Of a DNA stretch of 64,000 nt, positions 1-45,076 are shown piece after piece. How positions within the stretch are numbered: the stretch's first letter is position 1; each line of letters starts with the position of its first letter. Below the pieces are notes generated by a model. The model had not been told where the DNA came from. It saw only the letters and a program-made list of their open reading frames with translations, and searched no databases. The stretch comes from an uncultured Rikenellaceae bacterium. GTDB lineage: Bacteria > Bacteroidota > Bacteroidia > Bacteroidales > VadinHA17. The position numbers and the translations under genes are program-made. Location of the stretch: assembly GCA_964429295.1 (NCBI GenBank), contig CAYSBL010000003.1, positions 44,767 to 108,766 on the forward strand. The letters run 5' to 3'.

Positions 1-125
1 GTCTGTTTGATGTAGTTTTCTTCCCTTTCTATACTTACGGTTTCTGTGTCCTGTATGAGCCTGAAGTAAAAGGCAGGAGGGAGATATGCGGTTGAAAGAA
101 GCAGCTTGCCGGCCATCGTGGATTA

Positions 126-875
126 TCACTTCATCTGGTTAATCATGCTTGCAGAGAAACCAGCGCCGAATCCGTTGTCAATATTGACAACAGTTACACC
201 CGATGAACAGCTTGTCAGCATCGCCAGGAGGGCGGAAATTCCTCCGAAACTGGCTCCGTATCCCACACTTGTGGGCACAGCAATGACAGGCTTGCTTACC
301 AGTCCCCCAACCACACTTGCCAGGGCTCCTTCCATGCCTGCGATTACTATTATTACACGGCATTTCCTGATTTCAGGCAGCTTATCGACCAGGCGATGTA
401 TCCCGGCAACTCCGGCATCATAGATCCTGACAACTGAGTTTCCGAGCAGTTCAGCTGTCACGGCCGCTTCCTCGGCAACGGGTATATCGGAAGTGCCTGC
501 CGTGATAACAGCAATTGACGTATCGGGTCTTTCCGTTTCACGGAACGGGATACTTATGATCCTTGCTTCCGGATAGTATACCGCATGAGGAAAAATATCC
601 CTGACTGCTTCAAACATTTCCTTTCCGGCCCTGGTACCGATTACATTGTTCCTTTTTGCCGCCATTTGCCTGAAGATACCTATGACCTGTCCGGTTGTCT
701 TCCCGGCACAGTACACTATTTCGGGATAACCTGTCCTGATTTCCCGCTGATTGTCGATTTTTGCAAAACCGAGATCTGTATAGGGGAAGTCGTGCAATAT
801 ATCAAGAGCTTCCTGTACGCTTTTGCTGCCGTCCTTTATCTCAGTGAGGAGTTTTTCTATTTCGTCCCTGTTCAT
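126..875 (-). CDS. larB: Nickel-pincer cofactor biosynthesis protein LarB (PurE/AIR-carboxylase-like)
   Basis: 249-aa ORF. It has a PurE-like C-terminal half (IAVITAGTSDIPVAEEA, IIVIAGMEGALASVVGG) behind a LarB-type N-terminal extension. Its ATG overlaps the larE stop as ATGA (872-875). Confidence 0.85.
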   Translation of the reverse strand: MNRDEIEKLLTEIKDGSKSVQEALDILHDFPYTDLGFAKIDNQREIRTGYPEIVYCAGKTTGQVIGIFRQMAAKRNNVIGTRAGKEMFEAVRDIFPHAVYYPEARIISIPFRETERPDTSIAVITAGTSDIPVAEEAAVTAELLGNSVVRIYDAGVAGIHRLVDKLPEIRKCRVIIVIAGMEGALASVVGGLVSKPVIAVPTSVGYGASFGGISALLAMLTSCSSGVTVVNIDNGFGAGFSASMINQMK

Positions 876-1684
876 AATATTGGTTTTTCAGGATCATAAG
901 AGCCTGACCTGTATCCTTCAAGATCCAAAGATACATATCTGAATCCTATTTTCTTAAGGCCGGCGACAATCATTTCCCTGTAAGGAAGCTGTCCCATTTT
1001 TCCGATAAATTCAGGGAGGCATTCTATCCTTGCCAGGTCGCCATGAATCCTGACCCTGGTTCCAGGATATCCGGCATTTTTAAAGAATTCTTCGGCCTGT
1101 TCTGCCATATTGAGCGTGCCGGGGCTTACAGTGGTGTTGTATGGTATTCTTGTGAGAAGGCATGCCATCGGGGGTTTATCCGCAATATCAAGTCCCTCAA
1201 GTCTGAGAAGGTCCCTGATTTCCTGTTTGGTCAGACCGGCTTCCATAAGCGGACTTCTGATCCCCAGTTCCCTGAGAGCCCTGAGACCCGGCCTGTGAAC
1301 ACCGGCATCATCGGCATTTGACCCGTCAGCCACATGTGCGAAACCATGGTCGGCAGCATACCTTCGCAGGTGATCAAAGAGTATCTTTTTGCAGATATAG
1401 CATCTGTCCGGAGGATTATCCCTGATCTGTTCGGGAAAGGGCAGCTCCAGAATACTGTGATTTATGCCGTGAACTCTTGCAAACTCAGTCGCTTCTTTAA
1501 TTTCAGCAACAGGCATGTAAGGTGTCCGGAGTGTCAGGCCCATTATCCTGTCCTTAAGCAGAGTATGTGCACGGAGAAGGAGATATGAACTATCCACTCC
1601 TCCCGAAAAACCTACGACAAAGGAATTCATCTCCCGGAGTATCCGGTCAAGCCCGTCCCTGTTGTTTCCGGTTACGTCCGTCAT
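872..1684 (-). CDS. larE: ATP-dependent sacrificial sulfur transferase LarE (PP-loop ATPase)
   Basis: 270 aa. PP-loop motif GFSGGVDSS lies near the N-terminus. A conserved Cys in PPMACLLTRIPY sits where LarE proteins carry the sulfur-donating Cys. ATGA overlaps occur with both neighbours (1681-1684 and 872-875). Confidence 0.85.
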   Translation of the reverse strand: MTDVTGNNRDGLDRILREMNSFVVGFSGGVDSSYLLLRAHTLLKDRIMGLTLRTPYMPVAEIKEATEFARVHGINHSILELPFPEQIRDNPPDRCYICKKILFDHLRRYAADHGFAHVADGSNADDAGVHRPGLRALRELGIRSPLMEAGLTKQEIRDLLRLEGLDIADKPPMACLLTRIPYNTTVSPGTLNMAEQAEEFFKNAGYPGTRVRIHGDLARIECLPEFIGKMGQLPYREMIVAGLKKIGFRYVSLDLEGYRSGSYDPEKPIL

Positions 1685-2856
1685 TTGTTGCTCATAATAG
1701 CCGACATAATGGTATTATAGACCTCCTTTACAGGAATATTTCTTTCTGCCGCGATCTTTCTGCATTCCTCAAACTCGGGTTTGACTGATACCTGCATTCC
1801 TCCGAAGAACGATCTTTTTACAATAACATCACCGTAAATGGTATTAACCTTGATTGTTTCCCTTGTAAGTGTATCCTTGTCGAATTCAAAGGTTCGCATT
1901 CCGAGAGTTGTTGATTCCCTGAAGATTATCTCTTTCAGCCTGCCTTCAGCACCTTTTTCGCATATCACACTGAGCATCACTCCGGGACGTCCCTTTTTCA
2001 TAATAAGTTGAGTGAAAAAAACATCGGCAGCGCCTGACATGAAAAGCTTTCCTGATATGTGGTCATAGAATTCGGGATTCATGTCGTCTATGTTGGTCTC
2101 CATGAGAACAGCCCTGTGACCCCGCACCTTATCTTCGTTTGATTCGCCCAGAAATACCCTGAGAACGTTCGGGACTACCGGGTGTTCCTTATGTCCGATC
2201 CCATATCCGGTTTTTGTTATTGTCAGCCCGGGTCCTGCACCGAATTTTGTTCCGAGGGCAGCAATTATAGCAGCGCCTGTTGGTGTTGTTGCCTCAAAAT
2301 CAACTCCACCTATCTTCACGGGAATTCCCTTTATTATTTCAGAGGTGGCCGGAGCCGGGACGGGAAGCCTGCCATGGTCGCAGTTCACAAACCCGCTTCC
2401 AAGCTCAACATCCGAAACATAAACTGCTTCAACCCCAAGTTCAGTATAGCAGACTGCAGCACCAACAATGTCGACAATTGAATCAACTGCTCCGACCTCG
2501 TGAAAATGTACATGGTCGACCGGGATTCCATGGACCCTGGATTCTGCTTCTGCAATCTTCATGAATATCCTCATGCTCAGGTCCCTGACCTCCACAGATA
2601 AAGCCGATCCGTTAATTATCTTCTCAATATCCGGAAGATGCCTGTGTACATGTTCATGGCTTGTCTGTCTGACGGTAACTTTTGTCCCGGTAATTCCATG
2701 ACGCTGACTTCTTTCAGTTGAAAGTTCCCATCCTGCCAGGTTCAACTTCTCAAGTTCCTTCCTCAGAAATGCCGCATCAACACCCAGGTCGATCATCGCT
2801 CCTAGATTCATGTCACCGCTGATACCGGAAAAGCAATCATAATAGAGTACTTTCAT
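1681..2856 (-). CDS. larC: Nickel insertion protein LarC (pyridinium-3,5-bisthiocarboxylate mononucleotide nickel chelatase)
   Basis: The ORF track gives 1681..2949. The conserved LarC N-terminus MKVLYYDCFSGISGDMNLGAMIDLG starts at the ATG at 2856, giving 391 aa. A His-rich SHEHVHRH stretch and an HFHEVGAVDSIVD motif are present. Confidence 0.85.
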   Translation of the reverse strand: MKVLYYDCFSGISGDMNLGAMIDLGVDAAFLRKELEKLNLAGWELSTERSQRHGITGTKVTVRQTSHEHVHRHLPDIEKIINGSALSVEVRDLSMRIFMKIAEAESRVHGIPVDHVHFHEVGAVDSIVDIVGAAVCYTELGVEAVYVSDVELGSGFVNCDHGRLPVPAPATSEIIKGIPVKIGGVDFEATTPTGAAIIAALGTKFGAGPGLTITKTGYGIGHKEHPVVPNVLRVFLGESNEDKVRGHRAVLMETNIDDMNPEFYDHISGKLFMSGAADVFFTQLIMKKGRPGVMLSVICEKGAEGRLKEIIFRESTTLGMRTFEFDKDTLTRETIKVNTIYGDVIVKRSFFGGMQVSVKPEFEECRKIAAERNIPVKEVYNTIMSAIMSNK

Positions 2857-2984
2857 AAAAATCCTTTCATTAGGTTTAACAAACAATTCGCGCCAATGTT
2901 CCAGCCTGAAGTTATCAATATTAAATGTCAAGCCAGCGTAAATATACAATTTACAATCATTGGAGAATTGATAAAAATTATTAC

Positions 2985-2992
2985 TATTTTTG
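2985..2992 (+). promoter_or_regulatory. Candidate Bacteroidota -7 promoter box (TAnnTTTG) for the DUF362/polyferredoxin pair
   Basis: TATTTTTG lies 41 nt upstream of the ATG at 3033, inside the 176-bp divergent larC/DUF362 intergenic region. Confidence 0.3.
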
Positions 2993-3032
2993 AGGACTTT
3001 TCCGTTAAGATTTAAAATCAGATAATTCCATC

Positions 3033-3953
3033 ATGAGACGAAGGGAGTTTTTCAGAAAATCAGTCGGAGCGGGTATTGCTGCAGGTGCAGCTTTCAGCCT
3101 GGGCGGATATAACAAGCTATGGGCATCATCGGCATCTCCTGCAAAATATGATATGGTAGCTGTCATGGGCGGAGAACCGGATGCCATGTTCGACCTGGGA
3201 ATACAGGAATTGGGAGGAATGGGAAATTTCATTCAGAAAGGACAGAAGGTTCTTGTAAAACCCAATATCGGATGGGATGTTGTTCCTGACCTGGCTGCCA
3301 ACACAAATCCCGGTCTTGTAAAAAGGATCGTGGAACACTGCTTCAGGGCGGGAGCTAAGGAAGTTTATGTTTTTGACCATACCTGCGACAACTGGATTAA
3401 CACATACAGGAATTCAGGAATAGAAAGAGCTGCTAAAACAGCCGGGGCAAAGGTCGTTCCTGGAAATACTGAGAACTATTACCAGGAGATCGAGATACCT
3501 ACTGCCGTTAAGCTTAAGAAAGCCAAGGTTCATGAACTGGTGCTGGAAACCGATGTGTTCATAAATGTACCCGTTCTGAAGGACCATAATTCCACCAGGA
3601 TGACTGCCTGCCTCAAAAACATGATGGGTGTTGTGTGGGACAGGGGATACTGGCATTCAAATGATCTTCACCAGTGTATTGCAGACTATGCGTTGTTCGA
3701 AAAGAAACCTGTTCTCAATATTGTTGATTGCTACAACGTGATGGTAAAGCATGGCCCGCAGGGTGTTTCAAAAGAGGATGTTGTCCAGATGAAATCACAG
3801 ATTATTACCTCCGACTGGGTTGCAGGAGATACCGCAGCTGCCAGAATGCTAAACATTGATCCCCAGCGGATCGACTATATTCCCATAGCTCACAAGATGG
3901 GACTTGGAACAATGAATCTGGATTCGCTGAATATCAGGCGTATTAAAATGTAA
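3033..3953 (+). CDS. Tat-signal DUF362 domain protein (candidate exported redox enzyme)
   Basis: 306 aa. It has a twin-arginine signal MRRREFFRKSVGAGIAAGAAFSLGG and a DUF362-type core (KVLVKPNIG, NVPVLKDHNSTRMTACLKNMMG). Confidence 0.8.
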   Translation: MRRREFFRKSVGAGIAAGAAFSLGGYNKLWASSASPAKYDMVAVMGGEPDAMFDLGIQELGGMGNFIQKGQKVLVKPNIGWDVVPDLAANTNPGLVKRIVEHCFRAGAKEVYVFDHTCDNWINTYRNSGIERAAKTAGAKVVPGNTENYYQEIEIPTAVKLKKAKVHELVLETDVFINVPVLKDHNSTRMTACLKNMMGVVWDRGYWHSNDLHQCIADYALFEKKPVLNIVDCYNVMVKHGPQGVSKEDVVQMKSQIITSDWVAGDTAAARMLNIDPQRIDYIPIAHKMGLGTMNLDSLNIRRIKM

Positions 3954-3959
3954 TTTGTA

Positions 3960-5522
3960 ATGACATCTTCCTTTCTCAGGAAATTTAGGATTTTGTTTTC
4001 TTCCATCGTCCTGATCTGCTTTCTTTTCGCATTTGCGGACTTCAGAGCGGTCATCCCGGAGAAATATATCAACTACCTCCTCTATCTTCAATTTGTTCCT
4101 TCAGTGCTGAAATACATCGACCTGCTTACAGCGGCTGCCGGAGGTTTTATGATAGTTCTTTTGCTGACGCTGCTTACAGGCAGGACATATTGTTCTTTTA
4201 TCTGTCCGCTGGGTATAGGGCAGGATCTTTTCAGCAGGATCGGCGGAAAGGTGAAGAAGAAATTCAGAAGATTCGGATTTAAAAAGCCGCATACTGTTAT
4301 ACGTTACGCGGTACTTGTCCTCACTCTCGGGACGGCCATCTTCTGGGGGCTCTACCTGGTTACTCTTCTCGACCCTTACAGCATCTTCGGACGTTTTATG
4401 ACCTTTCTTGGGGAACCCGTTATCCTGCTGATTAACAATATGCTTACCTGGTTGCTTGGAAAGTTTGACGTTTACACTCTGCATCATGTTGACATCAGGG
4501 CATTCAATCCGGCGACATACGCAGTGCCTGTAGCATTCTTTCTTCTTGTTGGTGTCCTGTCCTTTATCAAGGGAAGGCTCTACTGCAACATGATCTGCCC
4601 TGTCGGGACTCTCCTTGGACTTGTTTCAAAAGTATCAATTTTCAGGGTGAAATTCATTGAAAGCAAATGTACCAGATGCGGCAGATGTTCATTAAGGTGC
4701 AAATCGTCATGTATTGATTTTCTTAATTACAATATAGATGTCAGTCGTTGCGTCAATTGTTTCAACTGCATTGATGTATGTCCTGAAAAGGCACTTTCAT
4801 ATGGATTTATTGGTTCAGGCGAAAAGCAGGAGAAAACCGACGAGGGCAGAAGGAAGTTTGTTGCAGGATCTATTCTGATGCTTATGGGGATCACCCCGGT
4901 TGCCAGCGGACAGGAGAAAAAGGGAGTCCCTGTTCCCAAAAAGGAATCGACCGTGAAGGAGCCAAGAACATTTCCGGTATGCCCTCCGGGGGCCGGATCG
5001 TTTGAGGAATTCACTGAAAAATGCACAGCCTGTTCCCTTTGCATCAGCGCCTGCCCCAATAATGTACTTCAGCCGGCAGTGAAGCAGTATGGCATAACGG
5101 GTTTTATGCAGCCGGTGATGGACTATCACAGGAGCTTCTGCACCTTCAATTGTACCCTTTGTACGGAGGTCTGCCCTACAAATGCACTGAAGCCATTGCT
5201 CCTTGAAGCAAAAAAACTGACTCAGATAGGGAAAGTGATCTTTATCAAGGATAACTGCATCGTAAAAACTGAAAAGACAGCCTGCGGAGCCTGTTCCGAA
5301 GCCTGTCCTACAAAAGCCGTTTACATGGTGCCCTATGAAGATAATCTTCTGATCCCTGAAACCAACCAGGATATCTGTATCGGTTGCGGGCATTGTGAAT
5401 TTGCTTGTCCCGTAACTCCCTTTAAGGCAATATTCGTCGACGGAAATCCTGTTCATATGGCTGCAGCCAGACCTGAAATAAAAGAATCCGAAATCACAAA
5501 ACCTGAAGAGTTTCCTTTCTGA
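3960..5522 (+). CDS. Membrane-bound polyferredoxin, NapH-like N-terminal module fused to a NapG-like multi-[4Fe-4S] module
   Basis: 520 aa. The hydrophobic N-terminal half carries two CxxxCP motifs (CSFICPLG, CNMICPVG). Six ferredoxin-type Cys motifs follow: CTRCGRCSLRC, CVNCFNCIDVCP, CTACSLCISACP, CTLCTEVCP, CGACSEACP and CIGCGHCEFACP. It starts 7 nt after the DUF362 stop. Confidence 0.8.
   Translation: MTSSFLRKFRILFSSIVLICFLFAFADFRAVIPEKYINYLLYLQFVPSVLKYIDLLTAAAGGFMIVLLLTLLTGRTYCSFICPLGIGQDLFSRIGGKVKKKFRRFGFKKPHTVIRYAVLVLTLGTAIFWGLYLVTLLDPYSIFGRFMTFLGEPVILLINNMLTWLLGKFDVYTLHHVDIRAFNPATYAVPVAFFLLVGVLSFIKGRLYCNMICPVGTLLGLVSKVSIFRVKFIESKCTRCGRCSLRCKSSCIDFLNYNIDVSRCVNCFNCIDVCPEKALSYGFIGSGEKQEKTDEGRRKFVAGSILMLMGITPVASGQEKKGVPVPKKESTVKEPRTFPVCPPGAGSFEEFTEKCTACSLCISACPNNVLQPAVKQYGITGFMQPVMDYHRSFCTFNCTLCTEVCPTNALKPLLLEAKKLTQIGKVIFIKDNCIVKTEKTACGACSEACPTKAVYMVPYEDNLLIPETNQDICIGCGHCEFACPVTPFKAIFVDGNPVHMAAARPEIKESEITKPEEFPF
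4848..4913 (+). other. Internal twin-arginine-like signal-anchor segment within the polyferredoxin
   Basis: Codons 297-318 read RRKFVAGSILMLMGITPVASG: RRxF, a hydrophobic helix, then a small-residue end. The segment separates the first two Fe-S motifs from the last four. Confidence 0.4.
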
Positions 5523-5587
5523 TAAGGGAAACGAGCCAAATTCTCGGTAAACATGATTTTTGTTTGCCTGAGCTATTTTTAAGGTGT

Positions 5588-5595
5588 TAATTTTG
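5588..5595 (+). promoter_or_regulatory. Candidate TAnnTTTG promoter box for the mce-mmd-cit operon
   Basis: TAATTTTG lies 34 nt upstream of the ATG at 5629. It sits inside the GTG-started N-terminal extension given in the ORF track. Confidence 0.3.
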
Positions 5596-5628
5596 CTTAA
5601 ATTATACTCATCAAAAACATGCTCTTTT

Positions 5629-6051
5629 ATGAAACCTACACATATAGAACATATTGGTATTGCAGTCTCAAATCTGGCCGAATCGGTGGCGTTTTACGAA
5701 AAGGTTCTGGGCCTGAAGTGCTATAATATTGAAGAAGTTACTGATCAGAAAGTAAGGACTGCTTTTTTTATGGTGGGTCAGACCAAGATAGAACTTCTGG
5801 AATCGACCGATCCCGAGGGTACTATTGCACGTTTCATTGAAAAGAGGGGAGAGGGGATCCATCATATAGCATTCGCTGTGGAGAATCTTGAGGAAAAACT
5901 CAGGCATGCGGCGAATGAAGGTGTGAGACTGATCGACACTCATCCCAGAAAAGGGGCCGAAGGTCTGGATATAGCTTTTCTTCACCCTGCTGCAGCACAT
6001 GGAGTACTTATAGAGCTTTGCGAACATCCCGGCAGCGAAAGGCCGGAATAG
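5629..6051 (+). CDS. mce: Methylmalonyl-CoA epimerase (VOC/glyoxalase fold)
   Basis: The conserved N-terminus MKPTHIEHIGIAVSNLAESVAFYEKVLGL starts at the ATG at 5629, whereas the track ORF starts at a GTG at 5584. HHIAFAV and LIEL motifs are present. It lies immediately upstream of the carboxyltransferase. Confidence 0.85.
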   Translation: MKPTHIEHIGIAVSNLAESVAFYEKVLGLKCYNIEEVTDQKVRTAFFMVGQTKIELLESTDPEGTIARFIEKRGEGIHHIAFAVENLEEKLRHAANEGVRLIDTHPRKGAEGLDIAFLHPAAAHGVLIELCEHPGSERPE

Positions 6052-6097
6052 CACTTAATTATTTTTCAATTCAAACAGAACACAAAACAAGATTCAT

Positions 6098-7657
6098 ATG
6101 GATAGCCAGGAAAAGGTAAAGCAACTTATTGAGCTGAGAGAGAAAGCCCGTCTCGGAGGAGGATTGCAAAAGATTGAGGATCAGCATTCCAAGGGAAGAC
6201 TGACTGCCAGGGAAAGGATTAACATACTTCTCGACGAAGGAAGTTTTGAAGAGTTTGACATGTTTGTCACACATCGTACCGAGGATTTCGGTATGGGTAA
6301 GAAAAAATTTCTGACCGACGGGGTGATTACAGGGCACGGCACTATTGATGGCAGGGTGGTTTATGTGTTTGCTCAGGATTTTACCATCTTTGGCGGTTCG
6401 TTGTCGGAAGCCTTTTCCCAGAAGATATGCAAGGTCATGGATCAGGCAATGAAAATTGGCGCTCCGGTCATCGGGATAAACGACAGCGGCGGGGCACGAA
6501 TCCAGGAAGGTGTCAGGAGCCTTGCAGGCTATGCAGAGATTTTTGAAAGGAACATCCTTGCTTCCGGGGTAATTCCGCAGATATCAGCGGTATTCGGTCC
6601 ATGCGCCGGAGGGGCGGTATACTCTCCCGCTCTTACCGATTTTATTATAATGAGCGAGAAAAGCAGCTACATGTTCGTGACAGGACCAAAAGTCACAAAG
6701 ACAGTTACAGGGGAAGAGATATCGACAGAGAATCTTGGCGGCTCAGGAGTCCACGGCACAAAATCGGGAGTTGCCCATTTTGTTGTGGAGGAAGAGGAGC
6801 AAGGTCTGCTGCTTATTCGCAAATTGCTAAGCTATCTGCCGCAAAACAATATGGAGGAGCCTCCCCTTACCGAGTGCGACGACCCTATCGATCGCAAGGA
6901 AGACGATCTCAACAACCTTATACCTGAAAACCCCAATCAGCCATATGATGTAAAGGACATTATTTTTAAAATAGTTGACTATAGTGAGTTTCTCGAAATT
7001 CATGCAGGATATGCCAGGAATATTGTGGTCGGCTTTGCCAAGATGGGAGGGATGCCGGTGGGTGTTGTGGCGAACCAGCCCAGCTTCCTTGCAGGCGTAC
7101 TGGATATTGATGCATCAAGAAAGGCTGCTCGTTTCATCAGGTTCTGCGATGCTTTCAATGTTCCCATCGTTACACTGGTTGATGTACCGGGTTTTCTTCC
7201 AGGAAGCGGGCAGGAATATGGCGGCATAATAATTCATGGAGCAAAGCTGATGTTCGCCTATGGTGAGGCTACTGTGCCCAAGGTAACAGTTACCTTGCGC
7301 AAATCATATGGCGGAGCCCATTGTGTAATGTCGTCCAAGCAGCTCCGCGGCGATATCAACTATGCCTGGCCTTCAGCTGAAATAGCAGTGATGGGTCCTT
7401 CGGGCGCCATTGAAATACTTGAAGGGAAAGCTATCGCCGGAATAAACGATCCGGATGAAAAAGCTGCCTTCATTGCAGAAAAGGAGAATGAATACCGGAC
7501 CAGGTTTGCCAACCCTTATGAGGCTGCAAAATTTGGATTCATAGATGATGTGATCGAACCCAGGAATACACGTTTCAGGATAATAAGGGCTCTGAGAACG
7601 CTCGCAACCAAAAAGGATCCCGGACCAATGAAGAAGCACGCTAACATTCCGCTATAA
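6098..7657 (+). CDS. mmdA: Methylmalonyl-CoA decarboxylase alpha subunit / acyl-CoA carboxyltransferase (12S type)
   Basis: 519 aa. It has the typical carboxyltransferase N-terminus ([16 protein letters not shown]) and the [17 protein letters not shown] and [16 protein letters not shown] motifs. Confidence 0.85.
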
Positions 7658-7668
7658 CCCATACAGCC

Positions 7669-8031
7669 ATGCATAACTTTTCACTAATACCGTCAGGACT
7701 TTATATTGATGACTCATCCGCAGTCAGGTTGCTGATCATTCTCAATATTATCCTGATAATAATTATTCTGCTTTGGTTTGTTATCGGGATACTGGCACCA
7801 CGGATAAAAAAATCCCTTGCCGGCCGCGAAGGAAGAAAAGCAGTTGACGAAACCGTTTCACCTGAAACTACTGGTGGCGATAAGGATACGGAAGCAGCTA
7901 TTGCAACAGCGCTTTATCTGTATTTCAATGAGATGCACGACGAGGAAAGCGATGTTATAACAGTTAAAAGGGTGTCGAAGACATATTCGCCTTGGAGCTC
8001 GAAGCTTTACAGTATGAGAAATTTAAGGTGA
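7669..8031 (+). CDS. OadG-like small membrane subunit of Na+-decarboxylase complexes
   Basis: 120 aa with a single strong TM (LLIILNIILIIIILLWFVIGIL). The C-terminal EAAIATALYLYF...DVITV segment is typical of Bacteroidota OadG/MmdD-like proteins. Its position is between the carboxyltransferase and the biotin carrier. Confidence 0.6.
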   Translation: MHNFSLIPSGLYIDDSSAVRLLIILNIILIIIILLWFVIGILAPRIKKSLAGREGRKAVDETVSPETTGGDKDTEAAIATALYLYFNEMHDEESDVITVKRVSKTYSPWSSKLYSMRNLR

Positions 8032-8076
8032 TTTTAACCGAAAGGGAACTCAATTTGATCATGTAAGAAAAAAAAT

Positions 8077-8496
8077 ATGAAGAACTTCAAGTTTTTAATA
8101 AAAGGGAAAAAATATGATGTGAGCATACTATCCCTTACCGGAAATGTGGCAAAGCTGAAGGTTAATGATGAGGATTATGTTGTGGAGATTGAAAGGAATG
8201 TAAAACGGGATAAGACTCCGATTGTAGTCAGGTCGACGATCAAGGAACCCCAGAAGGAGATCGAAAAGAAGACGGGAGGTCCTAAAACTGAAGTCAAATC
8301 TCCTCTTCCTGGGATCATTGTAAAGATTTTTGTTAAACCGGGCGATATTGTAGCGAAGAATCAGCCACTGTTTACTCTTGAGGCAATGAAAATGGAAAAC
8401 GAAATAAAGGCTGAACGCGACGGCGTGATCTCAGGTGTGAAGGTAGCTGCAGGTCAAACTGTTCTGCAGGATGAGGTGATAATGGAAATGGATTGA
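8077..8496 (+). CDS. Biotin carboxyl carrier subunit (biotinyl domain)
   Basis: 139 aa. The C-terminal biotinyl domain carries the biotinylation motif EAMKMENEI. Confidence 0.85.
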   Translation: MKNFKFLIKGKKYDVSILSLTGNVAKLKVNDEDYVVEIERNVKRDKTPIVVRSTIKEPQKEIEKKTGGPKTEVKSPLPGIIVKIFVKPGDIVAKNQPLFTLEAMKMENEIKAERDGVISGVKVAAGQTVLQDEVIMEMD

Positions 8497-8530
8497 TATT
8501 CTTTGGAAAAAAATCAATAATCACGGCATC

Positions 8531-9757
8531 ATGGACAACAACTGTGTGGTATCAGGTAACTCAGGTCCAAAAATAAGGTCCGACTGCCAGACAACATTAT
8601 GTCTGAAGGACGAAGGAGGGATCTTAATTGAACTTAAATCGAAAGTGGAAACACTTTATGGTGAATCCATAAGAACTCTTTGTACGAAAATGCTCAACAG
8701 CTTCGGGATTGAGAATGCACACCTCTCAATAGAAGATTCGGGAGCACTCCCCTTTGTAATAATGGCCCGGCTCGAAGCAGCCGTGAAAAAGCTGACCGGA
8801 ACAGGGATGAACTTTCTTCCTGATCTCCCCGAAGATTATAAGTATCCTTCCCAGCGTGACCGTTTTCGGTTTACGAGGCTTTATATTCCGGGTAACACCC
8901 CAAGCCTGATGATAAATGCAGGGCTTCATTCGGCCGACGGGATCATTCTTGATCTGGAAGACTCTGTGGCCCCCGAAAGAAAGGATGAAGCAAGGATACT
9001 GGTCAGGAATGCCCTCCGCCAGCTCGATTTCAGGGGAGCTGAAAGAATGGTGAGGATAAACCAGGGTAAAAGGGGCATGGCTGATCTTGATTCCGTTGTG
9101 CCGCAGAATGTGAACCTCATACTGATCCCAAAATGCGAAACACCTGAAAATGTGAAGGAGGTGGCTGACCATATTAGGAATATCATAACAGGATCGGGAC
9201 TGACCAGTCCAGTTTACCTAATGCCTATTATTGAAAGTGCAATGGGTGTGGAGCAGGCATTTGAGATTGCCAGAGCGGATGAAAGTGTTGTTGCAATGGC
9301 AGTAGGACTGGAGGACCTTACTGCTGACATGGGTGTCAGGAGGACAAGGAATGGGAGTGAAACCCTGTATGCAAGGACCAGGATCGTAAATGCAGCCAAA
9401 GCAGCTGGAATTCAGCCCATCGATTCCGTTTTCCCTGATGTTGCTGACATGGAGGGTCTGCTGAATAATGTTGCTCTTTCAAAGGCTCTTGGATACGAGG
9501 GTATGGGCTGTATACACCCCAGGCAGGTGGCAGTCATCCGGCAGGGATTTGCACCCGAAAAAGAAGAAATTGAAAAATCAAAAAAGATAGTAATGGCATA
9601 TGAGGATGCGCTCACAAAAGGCCTCGGAGTGGTTGCCATTGGTTCGAAAATGATCGATCCTCCTGTTGTGAAAAGAGCCCTGAGGTCTATCGATCTGGCT
9701 GTTAAGATGGGCCTTCTGGACTCAGGATGGAGGGATGAATCTTCGCCTGAAGTGTAA
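8531..9757 (+). CDS. Citrate lyase acyl carrier (CitD-like) fused to citrate (pro-3S)-lyase beta subunit (CitE, HpcH/HpaI fold)
   Basis: 408 aa. Residues 1 to about 95 resemble CitD (IEDSGALPFVIMARLEAAV, compared with E. coli DDKGALDCILRARLEAL). Residues from about 105 to 408 are CitE-like (RLYIPGNTPSLM, DGIILDLEDSVAP, IPKCE). Confidence 0.75.
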   Translation: MDNNCVVSGNSGPKIRSDCQTTLCLKDEGGILIELKSKVETLYGESIRTLCTKMLNSFGIENAHLSIEDSGALPFVIMARLEAAVKKLTGTGMNFLPDLPEDYKYPSQRDRFRFTRLYIPGNTPSLMINAGLHSADGIILDLEDSVAPERKDEARILVRNALRQLDFRGAERMVRINQGKRGMADLDSVVPQNVNLILIPKCETPENVKEVADHIRNIITGSGLTSPVYLMPIIESAMGVEQAFEIARADESVVAMAVGLEDLTADMGVRRTRNGSETLYARTRIVNAAKAAGIQPIDSVFPDVADMEGLLNNVALSKALGYEGMGCIHPRQVAVIRQGFAPEKEEIEKSKKIVMAYEDALTKGLGVVAIGSKMIDPPVVKRALRSIDLAVKMGLLDSGWRDESSPEV

Positions 9758-9780
9758 TAACTAATCTAAATTTGCTGATC

Positions 9781-11337
9781 ATGTCAATTCCGACTGTAAT
9801 AAATGCTGCGGGCAGGTCTGTCCCGACAGAATTAAACGGCAAACCTGCAATCCCATTCAGAGGCATAGGAAAATACAAACCTTCAGGAAATAAATACAGT
9901 CCACCCATACCATCATGCGCTGACTTTCCGCCTGATGGCAACAAGGTGGTTGCAACCCTTGAGGAAGCCCTCCTGCGATGCGGCATCCGTGATGGAATGA
10001 CCATCTCAACTCATCACCATCTGAGGGATGGAGACCTTATCAGCAACAGGATATTCGAGATAGCCTCCCTTATGGGCGTCAGAGATCTTGTTTGGCTGCC
10101 TTCAGCTTCCTTTCCCTGTAATGATCCCGTTATCAAATATCTGGAGGATGGAACCATCAACAGGATTGAAGGCAGCATGAACGGACCGCTCGGAAGGTTC
10201 GTTTCAGAGGGAAAAATGAAAGGAACTGCGGTGCTGAGGTCACATGGAGGAAGGGTCCAGGCTATACAGGACGGAGAGGTCAGAATAGATATTGCGGTTC
10301 TTGCCGCTCCCAGCGCCGATTCATTCGGTAATGCAAGGGGAACGGGAGGCAGCTCAGCATGCGGGGTTCTTGGCTATGCAAAAGCTGATTCAATGTATGC
10401 CGACAAGGTTATTATAGTTACCGACAACCTTGTTGACATCCCCTGTTTTCCTATGGAGATAGAAGGCAATTATGTTGACTGCGTGGTTGTTGTGGATAAA
10501 ATTGGAATACCTGAAAAAATAGTTTCCGGAACAACACAGATAACCAAAAGCCCCGACAGGTTGCTTATTGCCGAACTGACCGCAGCTTTCCTCCAAAAAT
10601 CGGGAATTCTAAAGGACGGTGTAAGGATGCAGGCAGGAGCAGGAGGAACCTCACTGGCTATCGGAGTATTCATTCATGATATACTCAGGAAAAGAGGATG
10701 GAAGTCGAAATTCGGATTTGGGGGCAGTACCCGGTACATGGTGGAAATGCTTGAGCAGGGACAGATGGAATACATACTCGATGCCCAGGTGTTCGACCTG
10801 GAATCAGTGGCTTCCCTTGCAAGAAATCCAAAACATATACCATATTCCGTATTCAATGCCTACAATTTCCATTCGAAAGGCAACCTGACTAGCATGATGG
10901 ACATAATGATACTCGGGGCAACAGAGGTGGACCTGAATTTCAACGGTAATGTGGTGACGCATTCTGACGGCTACCTGCTTCACGGTATCGGCGGCTGGCA
11001 GAACTGCCTTCATGCCAGGAACGTAATTCTTCCCCTGCCCTTGTTCCGAGACAGGATCCCTGTGATTGTTGATGAAGTTACGACACTGTGCGGACCGGGA
11101 GAACTTATCGATGTAATTATAACCGAACGGGGTATTGCCATAAACCCTCTCAGGCAGGATCTTATTGAAAGCACCAGGAACAGCGGGCTTCCCATAACCA
11201 CTATTGAAAAATTGAAACAGGAAGCCGAAAGGATTTGCGGAAAACCATCAAAGCCACTGTTCGATGATCAAATAGTTGCAGCAATTAAATGGGTCGATGG
11301 CACCGTTATTGATACTGTAAGGAAAATTAAAAAGTAA
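9781..11337 (+). CDS. citF: Citrate lyase alpha subunit (citrate CoA-transferase)
   Basis: The track ORF starts at a TTG at 9772, and the first ATG is at 9781 (MSIPTVINAAGR). The CitF-typical GMTISTHHHLRDGD motif is present. Length is about 518 aa. Confidence 0.85.
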   Translation: MSIPTVINAAGRSVPTELNGKPAIPFRGIGKYKPSGNKYSPPIPSCADFPPDGNKVVATLEEALLRCGIRDGMTISTHHHLRDGDLISNRIFEIASLMGVRDLVWLPSASFPCNDPVIKYLEDGTINRIEGSMNGPLGRFVSEGKMKGTAVLRSHGGRVQAIQDGEVRIDIAVLAAPSADSFGNARGTGGSSACGVLGYAKADSMYADKVIIVTDNLVDIPCFPMEIEGNYVDCVVVVDKIGIPEKIVSGTTQITKSPDRLLIAELTAAFLQKSGILKDGVRMQAGAGGTSLAIGVFIHDILRKRGWKSKFGFGGSTRYMVEMLEQGQMEYILDAQVFDLESVASLARNPKHIPYSVFNAYNFHSKGNLTSMMDIMILGATEVDLNFNGNVVTHSDGYLLHGIGGWQNCLHARNVILPLPLFRDRIPVIVDEVTTLCGPGELIDVIITERGIAINPLRQDLIESTRNSGLPITTIEKLKQEAERICGKPSKPLFDDQIVAAIKWVDGTVIDTVRKIKK

Positions 11338-31860: not shown

Positions 31861-34800
31861 TTATTCATCGATTGTGACATCCTCTTCTTTCCTGAACTCA
31901 GCCGGAGGCTTTTTTCTGAAGATATCTCCAAATTTGTTGAAATCCTGTCTGAGGGAAAATCCAAGACCCTGTGTGTAGGGAGCTCCTTTTCCTGTGTAGG
32001 GATTGTTATACCGGTTGAAAACCTTGAACCTTAGTTTCTCTGTAAGCCTGTACTCAATATCGAAATCCCCGATAAGCGGTGTCTCTTCTGTTTCGGTACC
32101 GGTCACATCGAAGTTCCCGTTTATCGTTACCCTGTCGTTGAGAAGCTGGGTCGACAGAGCTACCTGGAGCTGCTGGGAGCTCAGATCCTTCGTCCCGGGC
32201 GTATACAGGAAGCCGATATCGAAGTCGTTGCTTATCTGTGAAAGCCAGTTGCTAAGCTGGTTCGAAAGCATTTCCGTTGTGGTCACGGCCATTGCCGAAG
32301 TTCCTGCGCCGGTAGCTCCTGATGATGCACGATAGGCCGGGTCTGCATAAAAACTGTTCATGACAAGGAGATAAATGAACTGCTTGCTCTTTTCCTCTTC
32401 GGTTGTTATTGCATTCCTCAGATAGGTTCTGGTCTCTTCATCGGCATTTGGAAGATAAATATTAAATCCGACAACAGGGTTGAACAGGTTCCCCGACAGA
32501 TTCAGCTGGGGTTCAACAGGGATCCTGGCTTCATACTTCGGATCCTGCAGTATCGGAAAAAGGATGGGCGACAGGGAAGTCTTTATGTTCCTGTATTTTG
32601 CTGTAAGATCGATCTCGGAGTTCTCTATGTCGCCGCTGAAGGTTATTTTCCCCCCTTTTTCAACCTCAAATTTCTTGTTTAGAATGTTCTTCAGGGTGAA
32701 AAGATAATCGCCTTCCTCAATTGTATAATCGCCGAATATTCTGAAATCGCCATTTTTGTTCAGGCTGATATTGAGCTTCCCGGCACCCTTACCCCTGATA
32801 ACGTCTCCTGCTTTGGGATCAATGAGCAGCTGTACTTCGGCATCAGGAGTGACGTCAAGATCAAAAGTGAGCTCCAGCGACGATTCCCTGGGTTTCTGTG
32901 TGGCATCCTGGAGGCTTCTTGCCTTCGCCATCATTGCCGAATCGTGATTTATGAAGGTAACAAATGATGATTCTGAAACAGACAGTCCGGAATTCAGAGG
33001 GATAAAGAAGCTGGTGCCTTTTCCTGTTTTTGCTGAAATATCAAACGAAAGCGAGTTGGGGCCGCTTCTGATAGTCGTTACGCCCGAAACATAGGCCGTT
33101 CCGTAGAAGAGCTCGTTGTCGCCCTGCCTGGTGTTGAGCACAAGACAGTCATTCCTGTCCATGTTGATGGTCAGATCGACTCTGAAATCCTTGAACGAAT
33201 TGTGAAAGACCGCTCCCGTTAATATTGCGTTGTTACCTTCCTCATCGGTTATGCTGGTGTTCCTGAACCTTATTCCGCGCCTGTCGAACCGTATGGAATC
33301 GTTGATTGAATACCTGGTCTGAAGATAATCGATCTTAAGTGATGTGTTTTCAGGCATGAGTGAACCTGTCAGATACAACTCTCCTGGGATTCCGCTTACT
33401 TTAACCTTTCCAGAAACGGTGCCCCTGATATCGGAGGCAAAAAAGCCAAGCAGGGGATTAAGTGCATCCACCGGCAGGTTTGCTGCTATTCCCTCAATCC
33501 GGAATTGCTTGTTCCCTGGATCGTAAATGCCCGAGACATCAAAATTCCTTTTGCCGTTCAGGTTATTCCTCGCACTGAGATCGGCAACCTTTCTCCTTGA
33601 ATTCCATTGCGATCTGACCGACACGTCCCCATAATCGCCGCTGAGTATTGAAAAATCGTTAATGCTGATGTCGCTTTGTATGAGAGGATTCTTCAGGGCG
33701 CTGGATAACACGATACTTCCGTTAACAATGCCCTTTATGTTTAATTCCAAAGGATCGGTCCCATTGTCAGCTTCCCGGTCTGGCTTAGTGTTGAGGGGAC
33801 TCAGGTCAATTCCGTTAACAAACAGCTTAAGGGTATCACCCGCGTTGGAGGAAACAGTCCCGTCGGCGAACCAGGAATGCACCCCGCTGGAAACAATGAA
33901 GCGGTTGATCTTTGTCGACCCGGAATCAACAAGTATGGATGACCTTCTTATTGTCCAGGTATTTTTTTTTGTGATTATGTCGGTAGAATCAATGTCGATA
34001 AGGAGATATGATCCGGTCCTGCCGTCTTCCCTTGGGATGAAGGATCCACGGGAAACAAAGGCCCCTCTGCTTGTTTCATTTTTCCTGTCGATCCAGTCAA
34101 GATCGAAACTCATTTTGTCCGATCCGGCTTCGAATCCAGCCCTGAATTCCTTCAGGTCTGCTCTTCCCAGAACGAGAAGTGAGGCGCTTCTGAGGTCGGC
34201 CATGAATTCTGATCCCGAATACCGGGCTTTCAGCGAAAAATTATTGAAGGTGTTGTTCCTGTAAACCAGTTTCCGGGCATCGGCATTCAGAACTATCAGG
34301 CTGTCCCTGAAGAATGATCCGTTCAGACGGCTTTTTTCTGAAAGAAGAAGGCCTGTCCTGAAGAAATCATTGAGTTTGTCGGTATTTTTTGTGTTGATGC
34401 TGAATGTGAATTCATTGGAAGAAAGGTCTCCGGGAAGACCGGGCTTCATGAACTTCGCAGGCATTAGGGCAGCAAGGGCTGATTTCAGAACAAGACCTAT
34501 CTCACCGAATTTATAGTAACCTCTGAGATCGGCATCAACAAAATCTGTTTTTACCGAAAGGGCGGGCTTCCCTCCTTCATTGAATGCCTTCAGGGTAAAG
34601 TCATAAAGGTCGAGCCTGTTGCCGTATTTTCTTATTGTTGAGTTAAGAAGCCTGATCTCTCCGAAAAGGTTGTCGATGTTGTTTCCCCTGAAATTTGCAG
34701 TTGCCAGCATTGAGAGCCTTGATGTGGTGTCGCTCCTGTCAAAATTCAGCCTGTGAAGGTTCGATTCGGCAAGGTTCAGGGTGAAATCGAATTCCGGCAG

Positions 34801-36342
34801 TTCATCACTGAAATCGAGCATTCCCAGCATGTCCATTCTTATGTTCCGGTCGGAGATCTTTATGCTTCCGTCCCATGTTTTTTCAGTGAAAATGCCATTC
34901 AGGGTAACATTCCTGTAAACATATTTGTTGACTTCGACACTGTCGATCTTTCCTGTAAGGTTTCCGGATATGTTAGTCGAGGAGGTTGCAAAACCATCAA
35001 CATCCGTTTCCATGGTCAGCTTCCCCAGCATCTCTCTGTTATCTGTCAGAAGGCCCAGGTCGACATTGACACCCCTCACTAGGCCCCTGATCCTGAAATT
35101 TCCCCTGCCCTCAGGTCTGAAGGAGATATCTGTTTTCAGGGTTCCGGCATCAGTTTCTATCCTGCCGTAAGTGACGAAATCAGTGGTGAAGCCGGTGAAG
35201 TTACCTTCGAAGACTATGTTACCAAGCTTCTCCATAACATCAGGCAGATTCAGGTAATTGCCGTTTCGGCGGATCAGTTCAATATCCGATGCATTCGTCC
35301 TCAGGTTATCAATGCTTATATGAATGAAGGTGTCCTTGAGATCCGGAAGACCCGACATGTCAAAATCACATTCAAGCTCAGTATAGTCCCTGAAAGATGC
35401 TGTTATCCTCCGCCCGTTCAGATCTGATACAGTCCCTGATATCCTTCCCGAAAGTTCTACCGCTTCATTGAGTCCACCGGCTGCCGTAAGAAAATACCTC
35501 AGATCCGATGCGCTGATGAGCGACTTGTCAAGCCTGATGTCAAGCATGACATTCTCAGTGAAGTTACTGAATCCTTCCGATTCATCACCCGAGATGAGAA
35601 CCTGGCCGGCATTGATGATTGAACTGTCAAGATAAAGGAAGAGATCCCTGAATAAAATGTCCTTCCCTGCGAGGGTCAGATTGCTGTTCATACTTCTTAC
35701 AAGAAATCCTTTCGACTCCTCAAAGCGTATGTCGTTGATATCGAGTACTGTAGAGTCGCCACGGATCCTGAAGTCCTTCAGGTCTCCGGTTATCCCTGAA
35801 AGACGCAGATTGTTGAAATCGACCAGGGCTTTTCCGGCAGGGCGGTTTCTGTTGAGCAATGCAAATCTGCCGTCCTGTATTGTTATTTTATTAACAATAA
35901 ATCTGGTGCCGCCTTTCTTCACGGTATCTTCAGTATTCTTAAACATGTTGAGATACCAGGTAAGGTTCATCAAGCCCGTGGTGTCGGTAATGAATGCAAT
36001 TACCGGTCTGTCAATATCGACATGACCAAGACGGATATTATTGCCGGCAAGGTCGAGCCTGAGAATACCGGCTGATATCCTGGAAGACCACAGCAGGGTA
36101 TCGCTGTTCTGATCCTTGATGAGGAGATCGCTTAAGACCAGCTTGTTAAAGAAGGTGTACTCAACCCTCCCGACAGAGATCGTCGATTTGATCCTTTCCG
36201 AAAAGTGACCGGTGATCCTGTTCACCATAAACGTCTGCACCTCGGGTATCCTGAGCACAATGGAAGCCAGTGTCGGCACCAGGAGCAGGATGCCAACCAG
36301 TATCATAAGATACTTAAATGATTTTTTAATACTTTTGAGCAT
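31861..36342 (-). CDS. tamB: Translocation and assembly module protein TamB-like (DUF490 C-terminus)
   Basis: 1493 aa with an N-terminal signal anchor. The long beta-rich body has no Cys clusters. The C-terminal region is typical of TamB/DUF490 (FDIEYRLTEKLRFKVFNR). Confidence 0.8.
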   Translation of the reverse strand: MLKSIKKSFKYLMILVGILLLVPTLASIVLRIPEVQTFMVNRITGHFSERIKSTISVGRVEYTFFNKLVLSDLLIKDQNSDTLLWSSRISAGILRLDLAGNNIRLGHVDIDRPVIAFITDTTGLMNLTWYLNMFKNTEDTVKKGGTRFIVNKITIQDGRFALLNRNRPAGKALVDFNNLRLSGITGDLKDFRIRGDSTVLDINDIRFEESKGFLVRSMNSNLTLAGKDILFRDLFLYLDSSIINAGQVLISGDESEGFSNFTENVMLDIRLDKSLISASDLRYFLTAAGGLNEAVELSGRISGTVSDLNGRRITASFRDYTELECDFDMSGLPDLKDTFIHISIDNLRTNASDIELIRRNGNYLNLPDVMEKLGNIVFEGNFTGFTTDFVTYGRIETDAGTLKTDISFRPEGRGNFRIRGLVRGVNVDLGLLTDNREMLGKLTMETDVDGFATSSTNISGNLTGKIDSVEVNKYVYRNVTLNGIFTEKTWDGSIKISDRNIRMDMLGMLDFSDELPEFDFTLNLAESNLHRLNFDRSDTTSRLSMLATANFRGNNIDNLFGEIRLLNSTIRKYGNRLDLYDFTLKAFNEGGKPALSVKTDFVDADLRGYYKFGEIGLVLKSALAALMPAKFMKPGLPGDLSSNEFTFSINTKNTDKLNDFFRTGLLLSEKSRLNGSFFRDSLIVLNADARKLVYRNNTFNNFSLKARYSGSEFMADLRSASLLVLGRADLKEFRAGFEAGSDKMSFDLDWIDRKNETSRGAFVSRGSFIPREDGRTGSYLLIDIDSTDIITKKNTWTIRRSSILVDSGSTKINRFIVSSGVHSWFADGTVSSNAGDTLKLFVNGIDLSPLNTKPDREADNGTDPLELNIKGIVNGSIVLSSALKNPLIQSDISINDFSILSGDYGDVSVRSQWNSRRKVADLSARNNLNGKRNFDVSGIYDPGNKQFRIEGIAANLPVDALNPLLGFFASDIRGTVSGKVKVSGIPGELYLTGSLMPENTSLKIDYLQTRYSINDSIRFDRRGIRFRNTSITDEEGNNAILTGAVFHNSFKDFRVDLTINMDRNDCLVLNTRQGDNELFYGTAYVSGVTTIRSGPNSLSFDISAKTGKGTSFFIPLNSGLSVSESSFVTFINHDSAMMAKARSLQDATQKPRESSLELTFDLDVTPDAEVQLLIDPKAGDVIRGKGAGKLNISLNKNGDFRIFGDYTIEEGDYLFTLKNILNKKFEVEKGGKITFSGDIENSEIDLTAKYRNIKTSLSPILFPILQDPKYEARIPVEPQLNLSGNLFNPVVGFNIYLPNADEETRTYLRNAITTEEEKSKQFIYLLVMNSFYADPAYRASSGATGAGTSAMAVTTTEMLSNQLSNWLSQISNDFDIGFLYTPGTKDLSSQQLQVALSTQLLNDRVTINGNFDVTGTETEETPLIGDFDIEYRLTEKLRFKVFNRYNNPYTGKGAPYTQGLGFSLRQDFNKFGDIFRKKPPAEFRKEEDVTIDE

Positions 36343-40168: not shown

Positions 40169-40308
40169 AATCAACAGTATTTGATTGAAAATGTCTCGTC
40201 GTTCGGTTCCGCGCTGCCTCTCTTAAAAAAGGGAACCTCTTGTATTAAACGTTACTGAATGACGTTTTGTGACATTAAAAGATCAAAAATTGTGCCGCCG
40301 GGTTACTA

Positions 40309-40966: not shown

Positions 40967-41539
40967 TCAAACAATCCCTGTAAATCCCATGAAAGCCAGG
41001 GCAAGAATTCCTGCAGCAACCAGTGAGATGGGAACACCTTTCATTACCCTGGGGATATCCACAAGTTCAAATTGTTCCCTCAGTCCGGCCAACAGGATTA
41101 ATGCAAGCCCGAAACCTAGTGCAGTGGCTGCTGAATAAACAACCCCCTCAATCAGATTGTAATCCTTTTTGATCACCAGGATTGCCACTCCGAGAACAGC
41201 ACAGTTTGTGGTAATAAGGGGCAGAAAAATACCCAGGGCCTGGTAAAGCGGCTGGCTGATCTTCTTGAGGACTATCTCAACCATCTGAACAAGGGCCGCA
41301 ATGACCAGAATAAAGGTAATCGTCTGCATAAAGGCTATACCCAGTCTGTCAAGTACATATACCTGAATAAGGTAAGTGACAATTGTAGCGAGCACCATAA
41401 CGAAAGTCACGGCTGCCGACATGCCAAGCGAGGTATTAACTTTGGTCGACACTCCAAGGAACGGACACACTCCCAGGAACTGGGCCAGAACAATATTGTT
41501 TACAAGTAAAGCTGAAATTATTATCAGGATATATTCCAT
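40967..41539 (-). CDS. rnfA: Rnf electron transport complex subunit A
   Basis: 190 aa, polytopic. It has the RnfA/NqrE-type sequence (LGVCPFLGVS, PLITTNCAVLG). Confidence 0.9.
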   Translation of the reverse strand: MEYILIIISALLVNNIVLAQFLGVCPFLGVSTKVNTSLGMSAAVTFVMVLATIVTYLIQVYVLDRLGIAFMQTITFILVIAALVQMVEIVLKKISQPLYQALGIFLPLITTNCAVLGVAILVIKKDYNLIEGVVYSAATALGFGLALILLAGLREQFELVDIPRVMKGVPISLVAAGILALAFMGFTGIV

Positions 41540-41550
41540 TGTTTTTGTTA

Positions 41551-43698: not shown

Positions 43699-43716
43699 TT
43701 TTCAGATTAATTCCGT

Positions 43717-45051: not shown

Positions 45052-45076
45052 AGTTATTCAGTTTAATTTGTCATTA

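Follow-up and report, generated by a model that had tools for sequence, protein, structure and literature searches.

The 64,000-nt stretch of DNA analysed here, referred to below as the window, comes from an uncultured Rikenellaceae bacterium of the order Bacteroidales (GenBank assembly GCA_964429295.1, contig CAYSBL010000003.1, positions 44,767 to 108,766 of the forward strand). Close to its left end, an operon of three genes, larC, larE and larB, is divergent to a gene encoding a DUF362 protein with a predicted twin-arginine translocation (Tat) signal peptide, which is in turn followed by a gene for a membrane polyferredoxin (Table 1). An initial annotation of the sequence had proposed, from a spacing of His and Lys residues matched by eye with that of the lactate racemase LarA, that the DUF362 protein might be an undescribed enzyme whose cofactor is the nickel-pincer nucleotide (NPN), loaded by LarB, LarC and LarE in the cytoplasm and then exported. 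Here we examine how the DUF362 protein is related to LarA, what partners it has and how well its proposed use of NPN stands up.

Table 1 Features of the lar–DUF362 region and of the remainder of the window (coordinates are window positions)
Feature	Coordinates	Strand	Assignment or remark	Match
larB	126-875	-	carboxylase/hydrolase, NaAD to P2CMN; last gene of operon	NCBIfam NF033503 (LarB equivalog)
larE	872-1684	-	ATP-dependent sulfur transferase, CXXC-C type	TIGR00268 (LarE equivalog)
larC	1681-2856	-	CTP-dependent nickel-inserting cyclometallase; first gene of operon	PF01969, E=8.7e-147
larC/DUF362 divergent intergenic region	2857-3032		176 bp; conserved blocks and Bacteroidetes-type -7 box	
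DUF362 protein, 306 aa	3033-3953	+	candidate catalytic subunit	PF04015, E=2.5e-46
Predicted Tat signal peptide	3033-3134	+	residues 1 to ~34: RRREFF, Gly/Ala-rich h-region, LWASSA; putative cleavage site	
Candidate cofactor motif D174...H185-x9-K195-N196-x2-G199-x8-H208	3552-3656	+	conservation 92-99%	
Codon of D174	3552-3554	+		
Codon of H185	3585-3587	+		
Codon of K195	3615-3617	+		
Codon of H208	3654-3656	+		
Membrane polyferredoxin, 520 aa	3960-5522	+	begins 6 nt past DUF362 stop; likely redox partner	Pfam Fer4_5, Fer4
RRKF and hydrophobic segment of polyferredoxin	4848-4920	+	residues 297-320, between NapH-like and NapG-like halves	
Methylmalonyl-CoA epimerase, carboxyltransferase, small membrane protein, biotin carrier, citrate lyase subunits	5584-11337		downstream of module	
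1493-aa open reading frame	31861-36342	-		
Serpin, full length	38921-40174	-		PF00079, E=5e-114
Rnf-type gene set	40967-45940	-	RnfC-like, RnfD-like and RnfB-like products	Pfam

The three lar genes are chained by ATGA stop/start overlaps, just as the initial annotation had read them, with the larB/larE junction at 872-875 and the larE/larC junction at 1681-1684. The larC start is the ATG at 2856, the mechanically called open reading frame (ORF) extending to a TTG at 2949. Each product exceeds the cut-off of the corresponding NCBIfam equivalog model (LarB 296.8 bits against 175 for NF033503, LarE 277.3 against 150 for TIGR00268, LarC1 219 against 90 and LarC2 134.2 against 50), and the operon is expected to direct NPN biosynthesis. 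LarE proteins combine an SGGXDS PP-loop with one of two cysteine features, either a Cys that is sacrificed or the CXXC-C motif of a cluster (PMC9283937). The translation of the window LarE contains a PP-loop SGGVDS, a CYIC and a distal MAC, and because of this CXXC-C cysteine pattern the enzyme is probably [4Fe-4S]-dependent and catalytic, not sacrificial. The operon was also said to lack a LarA partner in the window, and this proved correct: none of the 36 ORFs scanned with Pfam matches PF09861, the LarA family, and tblastn with three LarA sequences found no match in the window even at E<10.

The DUF362 gene starts 176 bp from the larC ATG, on the opposite strand. Its product matches PF04015 over profile positions 1-200 of 200 with 158.7 bits (gathering cut-off 24) and also matches an NCBIfam family named for the Nostoc punctiforme locus tag Npun_F2552 (E=5e-16). 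The N-terminus, MRRREFFRKSVGAGIAAGAAFSLGG (MRRREFFRK...), fits the pattern of an S/T-R-R-x-F-L-K-like motif with a weakly hydrophobic h-region behind it, and the twin arginine is retained in 93 of 100 diverse homologues; the protein is predicted to be a Tat substrate. This layout is the one described initially, down to the positions of H116, H185, K195, H208 and H213. No Fe–S, haem or molybdopterin motif is present in the protein sequence. Relatives are numerous (4855 at E<=0.001 when 1.84 billion proteins, each standing for one cluster at 50% identity, were searched), with the close homologues being found in Bacteroidales or Rikenellaceae, and some 15 polar residues, grouped in loops after beta-strands, are near-invariant.

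A motif search located a -7 box, TATTTTTG, at 2985-2992 on the forward strand, some 40 nt ahead of where the DUF362 gene starts. When 73 orthologous larC–DUF362 spacers were aligned, blocks conserved across species became apparent, including AACAA...AATGTT toward larC and TATTTTTG itself. The box may act as a promoter, and a site for a shared regulator within the spacer is possible. No Rfam family or riboswitch was detected within window positions 1-8000.

In LarA, the N-terminal domain binds the cofactor, with Lys/His/His as its conserved cofactor residues, and the C-terminal domain binds the substrate (PMC12611868). DUF362 and LarA share Pfam clan CL0471, and a LarA study from 2024 took DUF362 as an outgroup (PMC11770544); their homology as such, being already recorded as a Pfam clan, is not new. 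To see how it applies to the window protein, an AlphaFold2 model was built on 100 diverse homologues (pLDDT 94.7). A Foldseek search of the PDB with this model returned 19 matches at E<=1e-3, all of them LarA family members, with E-values between 1.2e-6 and 1.6e-4 and query-normalised TM-scores of 0.36-0.50, with the first non-LarA fold scoring E>1e-3. The Pfam DUF362 model in turn matches genuine LarA at an E-value of about 1e-5 (26 bits, above the gathering cut-off), LarA residues 82-245 covering profile positions 18-171, and the order of secondary-structure elements is collinear between the DUF362 and LarA models across LarA residues 22-270.

The relationship is visible only through fold search, Pfam's broader model and profile–profile alignment. 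Sequence and profile searches of the PDB, using the DUF362 protein and a 100-sequence DUF362 profile, found no LarA; a local hidden Markov model of the Tat-DUF362 subfamily did not match LarA; the DUF362 protein gave no match to PF09861 (Lar_N) even at E<=10; and global-mode hhalign of DUF362 against LarA was uninformative. Nevertheless, the similarity that the initial annotation had suspected is real: the DUF362 protein corresponds, as a separate polypeptide, to the homologous NPN-holding N-terminal domain of LarA. It ends where that domain ends, and the LarA C-terminal substrate domain (PF21113, with Tyr294, Gln295 and Lys298) is absent.

The register of the two proteins was established by two routes, using a LarA sequence that proved identical to PDB 5HUQ across all 424 residues. 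In hhalign, D174, H185 and K195 are reproducibly set on LarA D163, H174 and K184. In the second, fragments of DUF362 and LarA were scanned against PF04015: DUF362 residues 165-202 correspond to profile positions 91-128 and LarA residues 155-191 to positions 92-127, so that both proteins have their D, H, K and G at positions 100, 111, 121 and 125. Further along, DUF362 residue 203 is placed at position 131 and LarA residue 191 at position 127; if the short stretches that follow are ungapped, H208 and the LarA nickel ligand H200 both lie at about position 136. Canonical DUF362 proteins, such as those of Streptomyces and Acetoanaerobium described below, have K-x3-G-x10-H where LarA has K-x4-G-x10-H, and the Tat subfamily carries a two-residue deletion. 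By hhalign and the PF04015 coordinates alike, K195 aligns with the NPN-tethering Lys184.

Conservation separates these residues from the others that had been matched by eye. Across 100 diverse homologues K195 is conserved in 95%, H185 in 94%, H208 in 93% and N196 in 99%, whereas H116 is found in only 39% and H213 in 44%. The LarA-like His/His/Lys/His arrangement proposed initially therefore survives in part: H185 and K195, in register with H174 and K184, and H208, probably in register with H200, come close to invariance, but H116 and H213 drop out. Among the divergent DUF362 proteins, seven (P0142, P0148, P0161, P0167, P0197, P0217 and P0221) have the H185/K195/H208 triad largely or wholly replaced, and these may be cofactor-less pseudoenzymes or have a different function.

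It had been acknowledged from the start that a spacing matched by eye could be coincidental, and as regards the spacing itself the caution was warranted: when the DUF362 sequence is shuffled, 46% of the shuffles contain H-x9-K alone and 1.9% contain all four residues in the pattern. The match gains its weight from conservation and homology instead. A composite motif can be written as D-x10/11-H-x9-K-x3/4-G-x8-11-H. Among close homologues its count was 120/120, among diverse representatives 103/124, among DUF362–ferredoxin fusions 119/120 and among LarA proteins 120/120, against only 7/4880 (0.14%) for shuffled sequences, and it is common to LarA and three DUF362 clades. That the residues should agree by chance of spacing, with no common ancestry, is an explanation to which we give next to no credence: the fold search, the cross-match of the Pfam model, the collinear secondary structure and the composite motif together demonstrate homology in register, and coincidence is rejected.

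The polyferredoxin encoded immediately downstream can be divided into three parts. Hydropathy and motif analysis show the N-terminal part to be NapH-like, with four transmembrane helices, two CX3CP motifs and two [4Fe–4S] motifs; next come an internal RRKF and a hydrophobic segment, and the C-terminal part is NapG-like, with four Cys-cluster motifs. NCBIfam scores are far under the cut-offs (NapH family 99 against 213, NapG 64 against 269) and there is a partial NapF match, and the protein is best described as NapGH-like, not as a member of the NapH or NapG families. Variants of the internal motif (RRKF, KRKF, KRRF) are present in many polyferredoxin orthologues. It looks as though the Tat signal of a NapG-type protein had turned into an internal membrane anchor, which suggests that the C-terminal Fe–S domain of a polytopic protein may be inserted in a Tat-dependent manner. 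NapGH and NosGH are quinol-linked electron conduits to a periplasmic partner. By analogy, the polyferredoxin is probably a quinol-linked conduit of the same kind.

In a genome scan that yielded 80 loci from different Bacteroidales species, with DUF362 proteins 75-93% identical to that of the window, the polyferredoxin gene lies directly downstream of the DUF362 gene in 78. It also follows in 56 of 80 metagenome loci of a second Tat-DUF362 clade, most of the others being truncated, and polyferredoxins follow DUF362 in three clades overall. The firmly conserved unit is Tat-DUF362 plus NapH/NapG-like polyferredoxin, probably a periplasmic redox module. Two more distant relatives, one 51% identical and the other, from Victivallaceae, 47% identical, have tatA/tatC directly upstream of the DUF362–polyferredoxin pair and in the same orientation (L083 787-4254 and L089 7926-11565), as if Tat machinery were dedicated to the module. 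Other relatives outside the clade have unrelated genes as DUF362 neighbours, and none of the longer DUF362 representatives is fused to a Lar protein domain. Some DUF362 proteins stand alone and have no ferredoxin partner: in L090/L091 (3834-17857) one is encoded within 7 kb of aldo-keto reductase (AKR) and ornithine-cyclodeaminase-family genes, which represent the other two folds lately reported among users of nickel-pincer cofactors, with no lar genes within 10 kb. This nearness may be a coincidence.

The 80 Bacteroidales loci also carry lar genes. Divergent to DUF362, larC is present in 80/80, with larB in 75 and larE in 66, and no LarA is encoded within 10 kb of any of them (1.6 Mb in total). 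Some of the 14 contigs in which larE went undetected are truncated upstream of larC; in complete larE-less loci, larC is mostly followed directly by larB (L019, L031, L033, L036, L039, L040, L054, L056, L059 and L079). The flanks are conserved as well: of 65 loci, 63-64 have a WbqC-like gene past larB, and of 66 loci, 60 have citrate lyase genes to the right.

Independent cases come from the plasmid collection, in which 4 records have a detectable DUF362 homologue, 109 a LarC and 20 a LarA. In Streptomyces sp. NBC_01450, a DUF362 protein 25% identical to that of the window (PF04015 E=1e-33) is encoded in a compact cluster resembling those for secondary metabolites (L172 9122-18380, equivalent to NZ_CP109481.1 37121-46379). 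A LuxR regulator, DUF362 and a cyclase are encoded on one strand and a DAHP synthase, a chorismate-binding enzyme, larE, larB and larC on the other, with 3.8 kb between the end of DUF362 and the start of larE. The protein retains K-P-N, D, H-x9-K-N, G and H, and the 2.35-Mb replicon has no LarA homologue. This lar–DUF362 pairing is unlikely to be due to chance, because only four records in the plasmid database carry a detectable DUF362. Similarly, a 2.63-Mb record from Acetoanaerobium noterae encodes larB–larC and a DUF362–Fer4 fusion with the full motif but has no LarA match. The Streptomyces cluster and the larA-less Acetoanaerobium replicon both support a link between lar genes and DUF362. 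In the same collection, about 60 Pseudosulfitobacter/Sulfitobacter plasmids carry a LarC-family gene (for example NZ_CP087024.1 49514-50530), none of which is among the 20 records with a LarA match.

What might the DUF362 protein do? Having no Fe–S, haem or molybdopterin motif, yet being Tat-targeted and paired or fused with Fe–S proteins, it must carry a redox-active centre of its own, for which NPN on K195/H208 is the best-supported candidate. Since it lacks both the substrate domain of LarA and a second catalytic His, net redox chemistry would be expected of it and not racemisation. From the anatomy, homology, motif register, conservation and genomic contexts described above we infer a scheme that takes in the identity of the cofactor, export, docking and the direction of electron flow. 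LarB, LarE and LarC would build NPN in the cytoplasm, where a thioamide would join it to K195; H208 would ligate the nickel, and H185 would be the only residue left for acid/base catalysis. Once folded and loaded, the protein would leave via Tat and dock on the polyferredoxin at its periplasmic NapG-like domain; the NapH-like membrane part of the polyferredoxin would link it to the menaquinone pool, and a periplasmic substrate would be oxidised or reduced through hydride transfer at the pincer.

Conservation of the site and the two independent lar clusters favour NPN use by DUF362, and larBCE without larA is known from about 15% of genomes, many of them cyanobacterial (PMC11796402). Overall, we put it at an even chance that the window encodes an NPN-using DUF362 enzyme wired to a membrane polyferredoxin and lying beside the genes for its cofactor. 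The initial proposal of an undescribed, exported NPN enzyme thus keeps its homology and its Lys/His/His site but loses the counterpart of LarA His108; the LarA substrate domain is absent as well, and Asp72 and Arg75 appear to be replaced.

A number of observations weigh against NPN use, and several of them also speak for an inherited neighbourhood, in which LarB, LarC and LarE serve another client elsewhere in the genome (a LarA homologue, or an enzyme of the AKR or ornithine cyclodeaminase type) and the DUF362/polyferredoxin redox module binds a different ligand, be it a simple metal ion, perhaps alongside a lysine that is carbamylated, or some other nucleotide-like cofactor. Because synteny among the 80 species extends over the entire neighbourhood, the 80/80 adjacency stands for one lineage and one evolutionary event, and the equally conserved flanks rule out counting it as 80 independent observations. 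Outside this lineage the pairing is mostly absent: larBC genes lie within 10 kb in 1/80 loci of the large second clade, lar genes are near DUF362 in 0/5 other representative contexts and near DUF362–ferredoxin fusions in 0/3, and DUF362–polyferredoxin pairs without lar neighbours occur in Parabacteroides distasonis and Victivallaceae. The single second-clade case (L134) was rejected as a functional link, its larCB being 8 kb upstream with unrelated housekeeping and sugar-nucleotide genes in between. Some Tat substrates carry no cofactor, so Tat export alone does not prove that one is present, and NPN users of other, non-LarA folds exist (PMC13524815). This explanation, the main rival, seems to us quite possible, if somewhat short of probable. 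It has to contend with the finding of LarA's tethering Lys, catalytic His and, probably, nickel-ligand His in register across three DUF362 clades, with the independent Streptomyces larEBC–DUF362 cluster that has no LarA nearby, and with the absence of LarA from 1.6 Mb of related loci.

The site itself also differs from that of LarA. The alignment of DUF362 with LarA by hhalign is weak (E 0.2-0.3, even with a larger LarA profile and secondary structure), and its low-confidence extension puts the H208 helix on LarA 212-217 instead of near H200. In a similarly low-confidence region, Asn78 and Trp81 occupy the sites of LarA Asp72 and Arg75, so that neither appears to be retained, and His108 has no conserved counterpart in DUF362. 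In LarA, Asp72 contacts the ribose and Arg/Lys75 the phosphate of NPN, and LarA homologues with a single His exist (PMC12611868). There is a chemical objection as well. Iron–sulphur partners deliver single electrons, and no NPN enzyme in the literature cited here works via such partners. Finally, DUF362–CBM9–dockerin proteins exist (PMC5742341) that are presumably secreted by Sec, which is not easily squared with cytoplasmic cofactor loading throughout the family. We are doubtful of the broader view that the DUF362 family as a whole is a large missing class of NPN enzymes, including thousands of Tat-exported, ferredoxin-fused and biosynthetic-cluster members, in which only the cofactor domain of LarA would have been kept and electrons would pass between the pincer and Fe–S partners, here as part of a periplasmic, quinone-linked respiratory or oxidative module.

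An altogether different role, as a non-catalytic accessory or substrate-binding subunit, or as an assembly or escort factor, of the polyferredoxin, with the lar genes unrelated, is in our judgement improbable. Such a role would accommodate the fact that, to our knowledge, DUF362 proteins have no known enzymatic activity, as well as the absence of the LarA substrate domain and the pairing or fusion of DUF362 with Fe–S proteins. It sits poorly, however, with some 15 near-invariant polar loop residues, which are typical of an active site, with a catalytic-type His–Lys–His triad that is lost together in divergent members, and with the stand-alone DUF362 proteins that have no ferredoxin partner.

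Returning to the candidate NPN enzyme, comparison with known systems brings out what would be new. With LarA (PF09861 plus PF21113; PDB 5HUQ) it shares the fold of the NPN-binding N-domain, D...H-x9-K...G-x(8-10)-H in register (for the last His, probably so), proximity to larBCE and membership of clan CL0471; unlike LarA, it has no PF09861 match, C-terminal domain or His108, and Asp72 and Arg75 appear to be replaced. LarA is a cytoplasmic racemase, whilst the window protein is predicted to be Tat-exported and is partnered with a membrane polyferredoxin. With the rest of PF04015 it has in common an association with Fe–S proteins and the conserved residues K-P-N, D, K-x-H, K-N, G, H and D; unlike the cytoplasmic DUF362–4Fe–4S fusions, its ferredoxin is a separate NapH/NapG-like membrane protein and the DUF362 protein carries a Tat signal. 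The K-to-H spacing of the Tat-DUF362 subfamily is two residues shorter than in other DUF362 proteins, and larCEB is adjacent in this lineage. The NapGH and NosGH menaquinol dehydrogenase modules offer a parallel for the polyferredoxin, having the NapH features (two cytoplasmic clusters) and NapG clusters behind a twin-arginine-like motif in common with it, but in the window a single 520-aa protein unites the two parts and the periplasmic partner is DUF362, not NapAB or NosZ. The candidate is thus a LarA-superfamily member of different architecture, predicted location and partner, with NPN use as a possible function.

Only two NPN users other than LarA have been reported, the AKR-type NphT and an NPAD-dependent ornithine cyclodeaminase (PMC13524815). 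The logic of their discovery was the same, namely larBCE without larA and a neighbour with suitably placed Lys and His. These enzymes have TIM-barrel or ornithine cyclodeaminase folds and are cytoplasmic, whereas the present candidate is a relative of LarA, predicted to be exported and coupled to Fe–S proteins. A search of the literature found nothing that links DUF362 to the NPN cofactor beyond its use as an outgroup. If DUF362 proteins do bind NPN, a cofactor could be assigned to a very large family that has so far not been characterised, nickel-pincer chemistry would widen from cytoplasmic racemisation to net redox reactions with Fe–S proteins and the quinone pool, and the first exported nickel-pincer enzyme would be at hand. 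Co-expression systems for larBCE already exist with which the candidate can be tested directly, and a close orthologue of the DUF362–polyferredoxin pair is available in the cultivable gut bacterium Parabacteroides distasonis.

The genes downstream of the module resemble a block for propionate/citrate fermentation, and the epimerase gene adjoins the polyferredoxin gene in 73 of 80 species. Further to the right in the window are the 1493-aa ORF, the Rnf-type gene set and, between them, a gene for a serpin, a family that is uncommon among bacteria.

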